Virus record (IMG/VR): IMGVR_UViG_2778261568_000005 | Direction: 5' to 3' (one strand) | DNA: 5,022 nt | Source of the DNA: a virus | Taxonomy: Duplodnaviria; Heunggongvirae; Uroviricota; Caudoviricetes | Part shown: positions 1 through 5,022 of the stretch, one piece after another | Layout of the letters: every line of letters starts with the position of its first letter | Numbering within the stretch: position 1 is the first letter of the stretch | Position numbers and translations under genes: made by a program | The notes under the pieces: generated by a model | Seen by the model: the letters and a program-made list of their open reading frames with translations, nothing else | Database searches by the model: none | What the model was told of the DNA's origin: nothing

Positions 1-203
1 TTGGTATACGTTTTACCGAGCATGATGTCTTTTCCTGTATGCCCGTGACATACAGTCCATACACCAACAATATCTTTATATGGTATGTAGCTGACACCTT
101 CCAGACCATCGTCACCACTCGGACCAGTGATGAGCACAGACGCTATGGCAACAGCCCCACCACCAATAGCAGCTGCTACAGCCTTGCGTAATGATGGCGA
201 CAT
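1..203 (-). CDS. rrrD: SAR endolysin (phage 21 R21 / DLP12 RrrD-type lysozyme), N-terminal 67 codons; continues beyond the left edge of the window
   Basis: Minus-strand translation from ATG at 203..201 gives [68 protein letters not shown], i.e. a Gly/Ala-rich signal-anchor-release segment followed by the start of a lysozyme catalytic region, as I recall for R21. The start overlaps the holin stop by 1 nt (TAATG). Confidence 0.85.
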
Positions 204-492: not shown

Positions 493-524
493 GAAAAGAA
501 AAACGCCAGCGATTATTCTGGCGT
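493..524 (-). terminator. Rho-independent terminator downstream of the AraC-family gene (minus strand)
   Basis: 7-bp stem ACGCCAG (503..509) / CTGGCGT (518..524), 8-nt loop, followed on the minus strand by UUUUCUUUUC (plus 502..493). Sits about 60 nt after the AraC stop and about 75 nt before the holin start. Confidence 0.6.
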
Positions 525-585: not shown

Positions 586-1317
586 TTACATCTTGCCTTT
601 TTCTAAAAAAAATCTTGATGAATATTCATGGGGGGGAACACCAAAATATCTTCTGAAAACACTTATAAAATATGACGCGCTTTCATAACCACATATTTTA
701 GCAACTTTCCCAACAGGATAGAAATTGTAGCTTAATAACCTTTCAGCCATCACCATTCGTTCTTCAAGAATTAATTTGCTAAATGATAAGCCTTCGTGTT
801 TTAGTTTTCTTTTTAACAAACTTTCACTCAGACATAGTCTTGAAGAAATATCACAAAGTCTCCATGCTGCAGATATGTCCGAGTGAATAATAGCCTTAAC
901 TTTGCTTCCTAAACTATTAAGACACCCAAACAAAAAACTCTGAAACATTTTTTCCGAGGATAAAATAGCAAGACATGCAAATAATATTGAATTTTTAACT
1001 ACAGCCGTAGTTTCACCATCACAATTCAAGCAACCTATCAAGTTCTTTAACAATGAATAGTCTGTACAGTTTACTATCAAGTATGCTGAATAAAATCTTC
1101 TTACAGAAAAAGGTGAGAGTGTATTGTTTTTAAAGAAGTCATTAACTGTTTTCTCTTCAATATCCACGATCATTATATTATCTTTATTTGAAGAAAAGAA
1201 AACTTTTAAATTGTATTCTATAGCAACAACACTTCCTTTTTTTAGAGAGATTTTTTCTTTACCAAGCCGGATATCAAACGAGTTCAAAACCAAAATGATA
1301 GAACATATGCATGGCAT
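586..1317 (-). CDS. AraC/XylS-family transcriptional regulator (about 243 aa), AT-rich, probably horizontally acquired
   Basis: ORF-track protein carries a C-terminal AraC-type HTH signature (...GYESASYFISVFRRYFGVPPHEY...) with overall architecture like the Rns/AppY/GadX group. I place the start at ATG 1317..1315 because a GGTGG Shine-Dalgarno precedes it by 5 nt; the ORF track's start at 1326 is a GTG lying inside that SD. Base composition is visibly AT-rich by eye. Confidence 0.8.
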   Translation of the reverse strand: MPCICSIILVLNSFDIRLGKEKISLKKGSVVAIEYNLKVFFSSNKDNIMIVDIEEKTVNDFFKNNTLSPFSVRRFYSAYLIVNCTDYSLLKNLIGCLNCDGETTAVVKNSILFACLAILSSEKMFQSFLFGCLNSLGSKVKAIIHSDISAAWRLCDISSRLCLSESLLKRKLKHEGLSFSKLILEERMVMAERLLSYNFYPVGKVAKICGYESASYFISVFRRYFGVPPHEYSSRFFLEKGKM

Positions 1318-1326
1318 ACCATCCAC

Positions 1327-1635
1327 CTGACATAATTAGATTTGAGTTAAGTAAGTATAGGTGGAAATATTAAAATTGCCATATTTTCAATGAGAAAAAT
1401 CTCATTATATCATCATGAACTTTGATATTTTCTTTAAAATATTTATGTAATACTAGATTAAACAGAACTATTTTTGGCTTGCTTGATTATTAATCATTAA
1501 TTAACATATTAACATTACCTTAAGCATGAACCGAATTTTTTTACAAACTGTACAACTATAGATATCATAGTGAAGTTTTTACGATTGTAAACATTCTCTA
1601 AGGAGAAAATCATCTTGTTGGTGCATTCCAAACGC
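1327..1635 (-). promoter_or_regulatory. AT-rich intergenic/leader region, candidate promoter for the AraC-family gene
   Basis: About 310 bp of very AT-rich non-coding DNA between the YbgA-like stop and the AraC start. On the minus strand an extended -10 element TGaTATAAT maps to plus 1412..1404, with no convincing -35. AT-rich tracts with palindromic TTAATTAA-type motifs (about 1486..1510) are typical of H-NS-bound xenogeneic promoters. Assignment is by eye only. Confidence 0.3.
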
Positions 1636-2595
1636 CTAGTTCACCAAGAGTCTTAGAGCCAGTTCATCAGGATAGGGGTGGAAGTAATTCTGTATAAGCA
1701 AATAATCATCAGGATACTCTGCCAAGTAATGCTTCAGCAAAGTTAATGGCGCAAGAAGAGGTAGCGTGCCAGCTCGATAGTTAAGTATAACATCGCTCAA
1801 CTCTTTACGCTGACGTGTATTTAAGCAGTTACTAAAATATCCCTGTATATGCATCAGCACATTCGTGTGATTTTTACGTGATGCAGGTTTTCTGAGAATC
1901 GCCATCAGCTTCTCACGATACACCTCAAAGTATGATTCAAGGTCTGCCCACTCATGTATTGCAGCCACAAATGGCCCCATCTCTTTATAACCGGCCTGGC
2001 TATGCGCCAACAACTGAAGCTTATAACGGCTATGAAAAGCTAATAATTCCCTTCTTGATAATTTCGCTTTATAAAGATGATTGAGCTCATGTAAAGCAAA
2101 TACTCTTTCAACAAAGTTTTCACGAAGCACTGGATCATGTAGTCGCCCATCCTCTTCAACCGGTAGCCAGGAAAACCTTTCCATCAACGTGCTCGTAAAT
2201 AGTCCCACTCCATCTTTACGACCACGATTACCATTTTCATCATATACACGCACGCGTTCCATACCACAGCTAGGAGATTTTGCACAAACCACAAATCCCG
2301 ATACATCCTTTAATTTGTCAAGATAAGAACGACTAAACTCTGTCATTTTCTCTGTAACATCCTCATTCTGGTCGTGGCTGAAACACATCCGTATATTTCC
2401 TTGCGCCGAGCGAACAAGACGTAGAGCAGGACGCGGAACTGGAAGCCCTATAGCCATTTCCGGACATACTGGTTTGAATGTTACCCATTCCAGTAATTTG
2501 TCCATTAAAAAGCTAGCTCTTTTGTGACCACCATCAAAACGGACAGAAGAACCGGCCAAACAACCACTGATCCCAACGACAGGTTTTTTTATCAT
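1636..2595 (-). CDS. DUF523 (TudS-like, putative [4Fe-4S] thio-nucleobase desulfidase fold) fused to DUF1722 (YbgA-like), 319 aa
   Basis: ATG at 2595 preceded by an AAGGGG Shine-Dalgarno. N-terminal half has the conserved cysteines in DUF523-like contexts (GISGCLAG, KPVCPEM, AKSPSCGM); C-terminal half resembles the DUF1722 domain of E. coli YbgA. Domain assignment is from recollection of the family motifs, not from an HMM search. Confidence 0.7.
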   Translation of the reverse strand: MIKKPVVGISGCLAGSSVRFDGGHKRASFLMDKLLEWVTFKPVCPEMAIGLPVPRPALRLVRSAQGNIRMCFSHDQNEDVTEKMTEFSRSYLDKLKDVSGFVVCAKSPSCGMERVRVYDENGNRGRKDGVGLFTSTLMERFSWLPVEEDGRLHDPVLRENFVERVFALHELNHLYKAKLSRRELLAFHSRYKLQLLAHSQAGYKEMGPFVAAIHEWADLESYFEVYREKLMAILRKPASRKNHTNVLMHIQGYFSNCLNTRQRKELSDVILNYRAGTLPLLAPLTLLKHYLAEYPDDYLLIQNYFHPYPDELALRLLVN

Positions 2596-2787: not shown

Positions 2788-3312
2788 ATGAAGTTATGGC
2801 CTGTGTTGACTGGCATTGCACTCTCTTTCACTCTGATAGCATGTAAGGCCCCGACACCACCTAAAGGTGTGCAGCCGATTACAAATTTTGACACCAACCG
2901 CTACCTCGGAAAATGGTATGAAATAGCTCGGCTTGAGAACCGATTTGAACGTGGTCTGGAACAGGTCAGCGCCACTTATGGGAAACGGAACGACGGAGGG
3001 ATTAGTGTACTTAATCGTGGATATGACCCAACGAAAAACAAATGGAGCGAGAGCGAAGGTAAAGCATACTTTACAGGAGATAATACAACTGCAGCGTTGA
3101 AGGTTTCGTTTTTTGGCCCCTTCTATGGTGGCTATAATGTAATCAAACTGGATGATGAGTATAAGTATGCTCTTGTCAGTGGTCCGAACAGAGAATACCT
3201 ATGGATTCTGGCACGGACTCCAACTATTCCAGATAATGTAAAAGCAGACTATGTGCGTACTGCTCAAAAATTGGGATTCAATGTCAATGAACTATTATGG
3301 GTCAAACAATAA
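2788..3312 (+). CDS. blc: Bacterial lipocalin, outer-membrane lipoprotein of the Blc family, 174 aa
   Basis: Translation aligns along its length with my recollection of E. coli Blc: signal peptide ending in a lipobox (TLIAC), then ...NFDTNRYLGKWYEIARLENRFERG...SEGKAYFTGD...ALKVSFFGPFYGGYNVI...YLWILARTPT.... Opposite strand to all phage genes. Confidence 0.85.
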   Translation: MKLWPVLTGIALSFTLIACKAPTPPKGVQPITNFDTNRYLGKWYEIARLENRFERGLEQVSATYGKRNDGGISVLNRGYDPTKNKWSESEGKAYFTGDNTTAALKVSFFGPFYGGYNVIKLDDEYKYALVSGPNREYLWILARTPTIPDNVKADYVRTAQKLGFNVNELLWVKQ

Positions 3313-3340
3313 AATACCTAACCGGATTGATACTTATTAG

Positions 3341-3368
3341 AAAAAAAACCAGCCTTTGGGGAGGCTGG
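3341..3368 (-). terminator. Strong rho-independent terminator downstream of Q (tR'-like); may also stop the convergent lipocalin transcript
   Basis: Stem CCAGCCT (3349..3355) / AGGCTGG (3362..3368), 6-nt loop, followed on the minus strand by eight U (plus 3341..3348 is A8). About 100 nt downstream of the Q stop, as expected for the terminator that Q-modified polymerase reads through. On the plus strand it is preceded by the A-tract and not followed by T, so termination of blc would be weaker. Confidence 0.7.
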
Positions 3369-3468
3369 CTAAATCAGGGAACAAGCTGTTATATGATCAT
3401 AACTACGTTGCGATTCTAACATTTGAAACATTAGTCTAATGATAACCAGACAGCAACTTTTCCTTTAA
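3369..3468 (-). promoter_or_regulatory. Candidate late promoter (pR'-like) and Q-utilisation region between Q and the terminator
   Basis: Position is the canonical one for pR'/qut in lambdoid phages. On the minus strand: candidate -35 TTGCTG (plus 3456..3451), 17-bp spacer, -10 TAATGT (plus 3433..3428), and a further -10-like hexamer TAGAAT (plus 3418..3413) in the initial transcribed region that could act as a sigma-dependent pause element. The exact hexamers are my inference and not a match to a remembered sequence. Confidence 0.4.
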
Positions 3469-3846
3469 TTATCTCAAACAATCAGCATCCATCTCCAATC
3501 TGAGATCCAACACCATCAGCATGCCCTCCACTACGCCCTCAGCTTTTTGGAGCATCCTGCCAATCCAACAATCAGATCTACCATGCTTACGCGCAAGCGC
3601 CATAAAAGTCATGCCGCCGACATAATAGTCCACTAACAAATCATGCAAATCGCTGTTGTTATTTTTCAGACGGGCCATGCACCCGCAAATGATCATCGCG
3701 TCATCGTCACAACATTGCGGGCGAGATTTTACTTTTGAAGGAATTAATCCCTTAAAACCGGCGGCAATGGACGACCAGGTCACATCTTCATGATTATTAG
3801 CCGCCCACGCTCCCCAACGCTCAAGAACCATCTGAATATCACGCAT
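3469..3846 (-). CDS. quuD: Late-gene antiterminator Q (phage 82/21 QuuD-type), 125 aa
   Basis: Translation [34 protein letters not shown]...[17 protein letters not shown]... matches my recollection of DLP12 QuuD / Q82. I use ATG 3846..3844 (GGAG SD 7 nt upstream); the ORF track's start at 3861 is a TTG adding 5 residues. Confidence 0.85.
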
Positions 3847-3931: not shown

Positions 3932-4069
3932 TCATACTCCTGCTCCTGTCAGTGTTTTGGCGTAATTCTTCAGTATTCGGTAATCGGTCAAAACAGAACC
4001 GGGGAAACGATATAAGCGCAGACGCACCCAGCGGTGGCGAAGACGTTCTGCCATATAAAACTCAAACAT
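3932..4069 (-). CDS. ylcG: Small nin-region protein YlcG-like, 45 aa
   Basis: Not in the ORF track (below its length cut-off). Manual minus-strand translation from ATG 4069..4067 gives [45 protein letters not shown], stop TGA at 3934..3932. Its start overlaps the rusA stop by 1 nt. Size and position between rusA and Q match ylcG of DLP12; the sequence identity itself is inferred from synteny. Confidence 0.6.
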   Translation of the reverse strand: MFEFYMAERLRHRWVRLRLYRFPGSVLTDYRILKNYAKTLTGAGV

Positions 4070-4431
4070 CATTCATTCCCCATTTCGGTGATGGTCAATT
4101 CCAGCCTCCCACCTTTGGTAACAGGCATCTTCACAACGCGGTAATCAACGACCTGAGCATCATCCAGCCAGAAACCTGCTTTGGTGAGTGCGTCAAAAGC
4201 GGCTTTTTGCAGATTATCCAGGTCACGGCGACGGCGATCCGGCATGTGGCACTCAATGCGGATTTTCACAGGCATCGCCAGGCCGATATCCAGCATTGCG
4301 TTTTTAATGATTCGGGCGACGTTATCGCGGTATGCCTGCCCCTCTGCGCTGACGTGCGTGCGCCCGCGATTATGGCGATAATAGCGATTATTGCTCGGAG
4401 GCCAGGGTAGTGTGATGTGGTAAGTATTCAC
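4069..4431 (-). CDS. rusA: RusA Holliday-junction resolvase, 120 aa
   Basis: Translation [120 protein letters not shown] is essentially the E. coli RusA sequence as I recall it. Start codon is GTG (plus 4429..4431 = CAC), overlapping the upstream ybcO-like frame stop as GTGA. Confidence 0.92.
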
Positions 4432-4556
4432 GCCTTAATTACCCCCTCTTTCAGCCAGATAACCTGCGTTCTCGCCATACCTTCCCGCGCGCATTCTTTT
4501 GCATATGCAGCATCGACTTGCTTGGCATGCCCTTTACCGGCAATCTTCTGTATGCG
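4428..4556 (-). pseudogene. ybcO: ybcO-like (DUF1364, putative nuclease) 3' remnant, N-terminally disrupted
   Basis: Minus-strand frame ending at TGA 4430..4428 translates to ...[29 protein letters not shown], matching the C-terminus of DLP12 YbcO as I remember it, with the stop overlapping the rusA start exactly as in the ybcO-rusA arrangement. Upstream the frame is closed by TAG at 4559..4557 and 4565..4563, and the only in-frame ATG (4478..4476) would give 16 aa. YbcO is 96 aa as I recall, so this looks like a truncated remnant. Confidence 0.4.
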
Positions 4557-4637
4557 CTAAACCTAGATAGAATCCACTCTGTGCACATTGAAGCCCGCTC
4601 TATGCTTCCTTTCAGGTATTGAAGGGATTGAGATGGG

Positions 4638-4940
4638 CTAAGCATTATTGGCCTCCTGCATCAGGAGAAAGACAATAATGGCGGCGCGGAGAGGTCTGGT
4701 ATCAAATATTGGGCTTACGCCTTTTGCATCCACACACCATTCAGTTAACTGGTCTAAGATAGAAATCCTGTATTTCTCAATAATCGGCCATGAAGCGCTC
4801 GGATCATTGCAGTAGTCAGGCAAATGATTTAATGGCTCAAAAGTTGTATCAGCATTTCCGTAATACCATTTGTTGGTGTTATTCCCTGATGTTTCCGGTT
4901 TACTTGCCCAAAGGCCTTTAAAAATTATGTCTCCTACCAT
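4638..4940 (-). CDS. Hypothetical protein, 100 aa, unknown function
   Basis: Uninterrupted ORF from ATG 4940 to TAG 4640..4638 with reasonable codon appearance, sitting where ninE/ybcO would be in DLP12, but I do not recognise the sequence. No Shine-Dalgarno upstream of the ATG (an AGGAG lies just inside the ORF), and a stable hairpin ends 6 nt before the start, so the start is uncertain. Confidence 0.4.
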
Positions 4941-4946
4941 TCTGTG

Positions 4947-4978
4947 TAAGCGTCAACGGAGCACCGTATTGACGCTTA
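4947..4978. other. Perfect 10-bp inverted repeat / hairpin between the upstream gene end and the 100-aa ORF
   Basis: TAAGCGTCAA (4947..4956) and TTGACGCTTA (4969..4978) are exact reverse complements around a 12-nt spacer that itself pairs (CGG...CCG). On the plus strand it is followed by TTTATTGG, so it is terminator-like for plus-strand transcripts; on the minus strand it lacks a U-tract. The stop codon (plus 4976..4978) of a minus-strand frame entering from the right edge lies in its right arm. Confidence 0.5.
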
Positions 4979-5022
4979 TTTATTGGTGAGTACTACGTTC
5001 CATGGCAGGAGTTCGTCAACTC

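Follow-up and report, generated by a model that had tools for sequence, protein, structure and literature searches.

We analysed a 5,022-nucleotide stretch of DNA (the window throughout) from the Caudoviricetes virus record IMGVR_UViG_2778261568_000005, concentrating on a gene for an AraC/XylS-family regulator at positions 586–1317 on the minus strand and on the AT-rich DNA upstream of it. From its open reading frames (ORFs), RefSeq and Pfam, the window covers the end of a lambdoid phage that holds late control and lysis. Its phage genes lie on the minus strand, starting with NinX and followed by a YbcO/DUF1364 remnant, RusA, YlcG, the antiterminator Q, three cargo genes, an S21-type holin and an RrrD-like endolysin. 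The regulator gene is the cargo gene nearest the holin. A prophage of E. coli 2017C-4173W12 matches the window sequence at 100% identity, and the regulator protein is 100% identical in the temperate phages 1H12 and Lambda_ev203, 087, 066, 110 and 058 (Jouyvirus). Phage 1H12 and the Lambda_ev phages form plaques and come from infant-gut E. coli (PMC6969025). Judged by its sequence features, the locus reads as a self-contained transcription unit that a lambdoid E. coli phage of Jouyvirus type carries in its slot between Q and holin. The regulator itself is an uncharacterised, ordinary-looking member of the PatE, PsrA and AppY kind.

The regulator gene and its protein

The PatE/GadW-like regulator has 243 residues (RefSeq WP_001112170.1) and belongs to phrog_1450, which is annotated 'unknown function'. 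The original prediction, made from the sequence alone, had called it an AraC/XylS regulator, and a search with profile hidden Markov models bears this out: HTH_18 scored 56.8 bits (cut-off 33.6) and HTH_AraC 47.6 bits (cut-off 26.6), and the C-terminal ~100 residues hold two helix-turn-helix motifs. The predicted start is the ATG at 1317, giving 243 residues, and not the GTG at 1326. The RefSeq start and the N-termini of homologues (MxxxCS[VI]I) agree on the ATG, and the GTG, which the ORF finder had chosen, falls within the Shine-Dalgarno sequence AGGTGG (1323–1328, minus strand), 5 nt ahead of the ATG. The sequence CAGGTGG is conserved upstream of homologues.

Among K-12 proteins, the regulator aligns over its full length with GadW (35% identity over 236 residues, E 7e-49), AppY (30% over 235) and YdeO (28% over 236), while GadX aligns in its C-terminal half at 39% identity. 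Homology with this GadW/GadX/YdeO/AppY subgroup is full-length and takes in the N-terminal M-x-x-x-C-S-[VI]-I motif as well as the conserved SESLLK recognition helix. AppY, in addition, lies in a prophage (DLP12) and is equally AT-rich. Identities of 28–35% are nevertheless not those of orthologues. The top NCBIfam matches are YdeO, GadX and HilD, each below its equivalog cut-off, and since the scores fall so far short (YdeO 112.7 bits against a cut-off of 348; GadX 98.9 against 500), the regulator is not an orthologue of YdeO, GadX, GadW or AppY.

The nearest characterized relative is instead found in enterohaemorrhagic E. coli (EHEC). Sakai ECs_0287 is 53% identical over 235 residues, ahead of PsrA (ECs_1087 in its full-ORF form, 40%) and of the K-12 proteins. 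Identity to ECs_0287 reaches 72% in the DNA-binding domain and falls to 39% in the N-terminal domain; in recognition helix 3 the two proteins agree at 12 of 13 positions and in helix 6 at 11 of 15. ECs_0287 is the sole AraC gene in the Sakai prophage Sp1, at thrW. Sp1 corresponds to OI-8/CP-933H, the OI-8 regulator Z0321 is PatE, and from this position we infer that ECs_0287 is PatE/Z0321. On that assignment, PatE of EHEC O157:H7 is likewise a prophage-borne, AT-rich (35% GC), GadW-like AraC protein of ~245 residues, with an invariant TATACTT element upstream and a similar Shine-Dalgarno spacing. It is unlike the regulator described here in its N-terminal domain and in its location, near the tail-fibre and attachment end of the prophage beside an insertion sequence element rather than between Q and holin. 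The targets of PatE are known experimentally, whereas the present protein is compared with it by sequence.

PsrA and PsrB (Z1789/ECs1087 and Z2104 of EHEC), which act through gadE, belong to the same subfamily and share the slot just downstream of Q, in late orientation and ahead of the lysis region. They differ in their lower identity (40%), in not being AT-rich (42% GC) and in their association with effector and Pch loci in EHEC. The ileZ-argN-argO tRNA genes follow them (with stx2 as well in phiSTEC1575-Stx2k), where the window has a terminator and the holin. Sakai psrA (ECs_1087) lies at 18677–19390 of our comparison locus L006, and its annotated 195-residue coding sequence begins at an internal Met. 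The psrA ORF extends upstream to ~237 residues with the N-terminus MxxVCSVI of the family, and the 237-residue form is widespread in public records.

An AlphaFold (AF2) model of the regulator (predicted local distance difference test score 81.7) has a beta-rich N-terminal domain and a C-terminal domain with a double helix-turn-helix. Its best full-length fold matches are Rns, CsvR and ToxT, which share the cupin-like N-domain and the double helix-turn-helix; identity to these proteins is ~20%, and the domain orientation differs in the model (root-mean-square deviation ~14–15 Å). The modelled DNA-binding domain superimposes on that of GadX (3MKL) with a deviation of 1.4 Å over 103 residues. By sequence, too, the nearest solved structures are those of the GadX DNA-binding domain, CsvR, Rns and ToxT. 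The predicted structure is thus that of the Rns/ToxT/GadX class, a two-domain architecture with two C-terminal helix-turn-helix motifs.

Base composition and transcription signals

The regulator gene and the DNA upstream of it stand apart from their surroundings in composition. Positions 586–1635 have a GC content of 29.9%, against 44.4% in the remaining window, and no 1,050-bp stretch within 19 kb of the identical prophage has less GC (z = −3.5 relative to stretches outside it). The coding sequence has 31.3% GC (26.2% at third codon positions) and the 318-bp intergenic region between ybgA and the regulator gene (1318–1635, minus strand) 26.7%. The neighbouring genes are higher throughout (ybgA 42.7%, blc 43.6%, Q 47.4%, holin 47.2%). 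Rare codons make up 11.1% of the regulator gene and 3–6% of Q, rusA and the holin gene. The AT-richness claimed in the original prediction is therefore real. Runs of six or more A/T nucleotides number 6–11 per 250 bp across 501–1500 (mostly 10–11, and 11 in the upstream region), against 1–5 in the flanking phage genes. With 66–73% AT, the 501–1500 region has the AT- and A/T-tract-rich character of xenogeneic DNA silenced by H-NS. The composition of 586–1635 fits H-NS silencing, and 1318–1635 probably either has a regulatory role or is DNA prone to H-NS.

AT-richness had also been taken as a sign of recent horizontal acquisition, a reading that the evidence does not support. AppY (31.7% GC), ECs_0287 (35.2%) and the diverged alleles of the regulator gene (all 31–33%) are AT-rich too, so low GC is a stable trait of the family and not a mark of recency. 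Synonymous divergence (dS, Nei-Gojobori) of the regulator gene is 0.35–0.59 between alleles and 1.4 to a 62% identical homologue. The ratio of nonsynonymous to synonymous divergence (dN/dS) is 0.19–0.27, compared with 0.07–0.14 in the neighbours, and the ORF is full-length in all alleles examined. These values point to purifying selection and, together with the retained low GC, to an old resident that has been kept intact by selection. Among GTDB species representatives, no relative of at least 50% identity was found outside E. coli prophage DNA, and no donor can therefore be named. The sole GTDB relative at or above that level lies on JARKOR010000151.1 (L015), a contig of a 'Candidatus Nanosynbacter' metagenome-assembled genome that carries the prophage cassette described below at 84% identity over 2.36 kb. 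This contig is almost certainly a binning contaminant from an E. coli prophage, and we rejected a donor outside E. coli on that account.

Two promoter candidates in the upstream region are marked by conservation. The proximal one, of sigma-70/sigma-S type (ATGGCA-17-TATACT, 1354–1382, minus strand), has the −10 context CTATACTTA, which is found at a single place in the window, with 0.04 occurrences expected, and lies about 37 nt before the ATG. TATACTT is invariant in seven homologues whose proteins are 37–100% identical, always 36–40 nt before the ATG, and the −35-like T.G..A is mostly retained among them. CTATACT is reportedly a −10 sequence preferred by sigma-S. A −10 of this type fits what is described for the relatives, a 6-fold RpoS dependence of Z0321 and induction of ECs0287 at the transition to stationary phase. 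The distal candidate (TTTACA-16-TATGAT, 1564–1591, minus strand), just past the ybgA stop, matched at 10 of 12 positions in the scan and is conserved across four alleles. An imperfect 18-nt inverted repeat (1540–1557 and 1574–1591) encloses the distal site, and 1540–1591 presents face-to-face pairs of promoter-like hexamers, TTTACA-17-TATCAT on the plus strand and TTTACA-16-TATGAT on the minus strand.

Both candidates are better supported by conservation than the extended −10 promoter that had been proposed at TGATATAAT (1404–1412, minus strand). That sequence is present and is the sole match in the window, but with 0.43 expected by chance and at least one match in 36% of shuffles it does not exceed chance; it is also specific to this allele, other alleles having TGATGCAAT or CCCGCAGCA at the site. 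Should the proximal site be the one in use, the greater part of the 318 bp would be regulatory DNA upstream of the promoter and not leader. The long AT-rich leader of the original prediction holds as AT-rich DNA, but its reading as a leader is not supported. Folding of 1300–1640 gave a minimum free energy no better than that of shuffles (z +0.69) and Rfam has no family in the upstream region, and we rejected a structured RNA leader or riboswitch on these two grounds. Repeats in the upstream region are confined to short two-copy matches, possibly due to chance. We also looked for a GadE GAD box, which was rejected since the best match in the window has 5 mismatches in 20 positions and lies downstream of the regulator gene. 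An operator motif common to the upstream region and the blc/ybgA intergenic region was rejected likewise, as the two regions have no word of 10 nt or more in common.

At its 3′ end the regulator gene is followed by an intrinsic terminator of its own (493–524, minus strand), as had been predicted. The hairpin (524–503), with arms ACGCCAG and CTGGCGT around the loop aataatcg, and its T-run are invariant in three diverged alleles (loci L013, L014 and L008) whose flanks diverge, and a similar hairpin follows one homologue (P0014). In the intergenic region that separates the regulator gene from ybgA a terminator scan detected none, which leaves room for read-through from ybgA.

The original prediction missed that the gene lies in late-gene orientation downstream of Q. 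Upstream in the same orientation are a candidate late promoter pR′ (TTGCTG-17-TAATGT, 3428–3456, minus strand), placed by position only and conserved in L013 and L014, and a tR′-like intrinsic terminator with a 9-bp stem and T8 (3339–3370, minus strand), conserved in prophages that carry the same genes. The scan gave an alternative pR′ site at 3497–3468. The tR′-like hairpin also accounts for the sole Rfam match in the window, RF02278, which at 26 bits falls short of its cut-off of 50. The short unit at 3339–3456, a candidate promoter, ~50 nt and a terminator, predicts an RNA of ~80 nt, which would be analogous to lambda 6S. Placed in this way, the regulator gene should in addition be co-transcribed with the late genes once the prophage is induced, as happens with stx in Shiga toxin (Stx) phages. 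There stx occupies the same slot between Q/pR′/tR′ and holin, in late orientation and with a promoter of its own. The analogy is one of position: stx encodes a toxin and not a regulator, and induction dependence is here inferred. Besides Stx phages, DLP12 carries other cargo (nmpC) in the slot.

The three-gene cassette and its neighbours

Membership in a three-gene cassette is a second point that the original prediction did not see. The layout is Q, pR′/tR′, blc (reverse), ybgA, the AraC gene, its terminator and holin, and it is identical in a DLP12-like prophage (L013), a Qin-like prophage (L014) and phage IdasGreatGrand (L008). Counting a stretch as present when at least 80% of it is covered, the regulator gene with its upstream region occurs in 970 of 5426 complete E. 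coli genomes (~18%). Of these, 110 have it at 95% identity or more (108 at 99% or more) and most others at about 80%; the ybgA-blc stretch occurs in 1044 genomes. Alleles are 82–87% identical to the window in the regulator gene, 92% in ybgA, 95% in blc and 94–97% in Q, and the upstream intergenic region is the most diverged segment (72–79%, with indels). The exact regulator protein is found on at least 1000 contigs in public records.

Homologues of the regulator occur in the Q-adjacent slot without blc or ybgA. One (P0014, 54% identical) lies between a lambda-type Q (PF06323) and the holin, two others (P0013, 62%; P0023, 37%) directly follow a PF03589 antiterminator, and PsrA and its phiSTEC1575-Stx2k homologue (40%) come after Q and before tRNA genes. 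GadW-like AraC genes (L012, L094, L096, L006 and L011) immediately follow antiterminators from three unrelated families (PF06530, PF03589 and PF06323) and are co-oriented with them. PatE-type genes (ECs_0287, ev099 and mEp332) lie beyond tail-fibre genes. The absence of blc and ybgA and the variety of positions indicate that the regulator module is separable cargo and that the slot between Q and holin is a repeated landing site. The prevalence of the cassette, the clade-wide TATACTT and the recurrent placement after unrelated Q genes are new with respect to the original prediction.

The upstream partner of the regulator, in the same orientation, is a YbgA-family gene (1636–2595, minus strand) in which Pfam recognizes 2-thiouracil desulfurase/DUF523 and DUF1722. 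It encodes a full-length fusion of the desulfurase (DUF523/TudS) with DUF1722 and belongs to phrog_3275, annotated 'unknown function'; K-12 YbgA is not known to have more than the DUF1722 part. The third cargo gene encodes a Blc-type lipocalin lipoprotein (2788–3312, plus strand; NCBIfam Blc 315.5 bits, cut-off 267; Pfam Lipocalin_2) and is opposed to the late genes. Late transcription driven by Q would run antisense through blc and so collide with its expression. The blc gene is a frequent lambda moron, present in more than half of infant-gut lambda-like phages (PMC6969025). PADLOC matched none of the three cassette proteins, and a defence-system reading of the cassette was rejected on that basis.

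On the downstream side, the regulator adjoins the lysis genes as originally described. The S21-type class II holin, first gene of the lysis cassette, lies at 203–418 on the minus strand (Pfam Phage_holin_2_1, E 3e-35; RefSeq), and the 5′ part of the RrrD-like endolysin gene at 1–203 (minus strand, from the RefSeq annotation of the identical locus) is cut by the window edge. In the holin N-terminus MKSMDK, the second Met codon comes three residues after the first, a dual start of the kind that S21-type holin/antiholin pairs typically have. Upstream of the cassette are the antiterminator Q (3469–3846; PF06530, Pfam E 2.5e-51, and RefSeq), YlcG (3932–4072), RusA (4069–4431) and NinX (4638–4979), all on the minus strand. 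Between rusA and ninX (4428–4645, minus strand) are a truncated DUF1364/YbcO remnant, a RefSeq pseudogene, and an overlapping 64-residue ORF for which no Pfam match was found; together they are a recombination scar in the nin region.

Proposed role of the regulator

We propose that the gene is an AT-rich, PatE/GadW-type moron regulator, a lysogenic-conversion gene that acts on the acid-resistance circuit of the host. The two parts of this proposal are held with different confidence. That the gene is a PatE-like moron regulator we consider very probable: the low GC (30% against 44%), the conserved promoter candidate, the invariant terminator and a slot open to other cargo are those of a phage moron, and the similarity to ECs_0287, with the invariant TATACTT, is that of a PatE-like regulator. 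That the acid-resistance circuit is its target, a proposal made by analogy, we rate as an even chance. Our lean towards the statement as a whole is a slight one.

In the lysogen, transcription of the regulator would be low and driven by a promoter of its own, one that stationary phase and RpoS probably favour, as for Z0321/PatE, and that H-NS on the 73%-AT upstream DNA probably restrains. Transcripts that read through from ybgA may contribute as well, and the terminator at 503–524 would keep this transcription off the holin and endolysin genes. The protein would then bind AT-rich sites in host promoters and activate the acid-fitness-island circuit (gadE, hdeAB and gadBC). The gad circuit is suggested because the relatives AppY, GadX, GadW, YdeO, PatE, PsrA and PsrB are described as acting there. 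AppY binds gadE directly, and GadW, GadX and YdeO control gadE (PMC10057817). PatE and PsrB act at hdeA between −132 and −45, PsrB also binds the gadE promoter, and GadE is induced by PsrA and PsrB (PMC10877973). Upon prophage induction, Q-modified RNA polymerase from pR′ would pass tR′, ybgA, the regulator gene and its terminator, and the regulator would then also be made alongside the late genes, as Stx is.

Several points weigh against this proposal. Acid-resistance activation by this protein is argued purely from homology, and the identification of ECs_0287 as PatE comes from its position as the sole AraC gene in Sp1/OI-8 and not from a named record. Given the 39% identity of the N-terminal domains and the four differences among 15 positions of helix 6, signal input and exact site preference may differ from those of PatE. 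The promoter assignments are consensus matches with conservation and so mark candidate sites. The window has no GAD box, and 586–1635 has no match within 2 mismatches to the high-affinity H-NS motif TCGATAAATT. Public records name the protein only generically, and our literature search found no paper on the regulator of this cassette, PMC6969025 mentioning blc only.

A more ambitious version of the proposal, which we regard as doubtful, holds that GadW-like regulators are recurrent cargo between Q and holin because the slot gives two modes of expression. A silenced, RpoS-type trickle in the lysogen would give way to a Q-driven burst on induction. Through the burst the phage could reprogram acid or stress physiology in induced cells, which would be the regulatory counterpart of Stx release, and the invariant terminator would be an insulator that makes the arrangement safe.

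The likeliest of the alternatives, though in our judgement still an improbable one, makes the protein a local regulator of the divergent blc and ybgA promoters (2596–2787), with the three genes forming one functional unit. Control of neighbouring genes is common among AraC proteins, and the three genes stay linked across different backbones (the DLP12-like and Qin-like prophages and phage IdasGreatGrand) and in similar numbers of genomes (970 and 1044), with no terminator detected between ybgA and the regulator gene. Blc is a lipid-binding lipocalin, and the best fold matches of the regulator model include Rns and ToxT, whose PDB entries have fatty acid bound. Such a unit is hard to reconcile with the 37–62% identical homologues that lack blc and ybgA, as in the Q-araC-holin order of L096 and directly after Q in L012 and L094, or with the PatE-type genes that adjoin tail-fibre genes and also lack both partners. 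The missing common motif of 10 nt or more argues against it as well, as does the GC content of the regulator gene (31%) next to 43–44% in its partners.

The placement of the gene in the late operon raises a further alternative, in which the protein serves the phage. It would be made mainly from the Q-antiterminated late transcript and would tune the host in lytic growth, or act on phage promoters in lysis timing or superinfection. Late-operon orientation, a position between tR′ and holin and the recurrence of the family directly after three unrelated Q families are all in keeping with this idea. We nonetheless consider it very improbable, since the conserved candidate promoter and the terminator of the gene suggest that it is expressed in the lysogen, PatE-type relatives are not located in the late operon, the characterized relatives act on host genes in lysogens, and the gene is intact though many of its carriers are defective (DLP12- or Qin-like) prophages. 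It is just as improbable that the gene is silenced cargo without a current role, coated by H-NS, barely expressed and kept by linkage to the lysis region: the very low GC, the 11% rare codons, a dN/dS above that of the neighbours and the generic annotation would suit this, but dN/dS stays well under 1 over dS values up to 1.4 with the ORF full-length throughout, the −10, Shine-Dalgarno sequence and terminator are all conserved, and the relatives AppY, PatE and PsrA/B function despite silencing.

Work on prophage AraC regulators that feed into acid-resistance and virulence circuits has been nearly confined to EHEC (PatE, PsrA and PsrB) and K-12 (AppY). The cassette that carries the present regulator is found in about a sixth of complete E. 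coli genomes and in plaque-forming phages of the infant gut, and the placement of the gene offers a simple test of whether a moron regulator is co-induced with lysis genes. If the regulator does act on gadE and hdeA, phages would carry, and could transfer, some of the strain-to-strain variation in acid survival among commensal and extra-intestinal E. coli.

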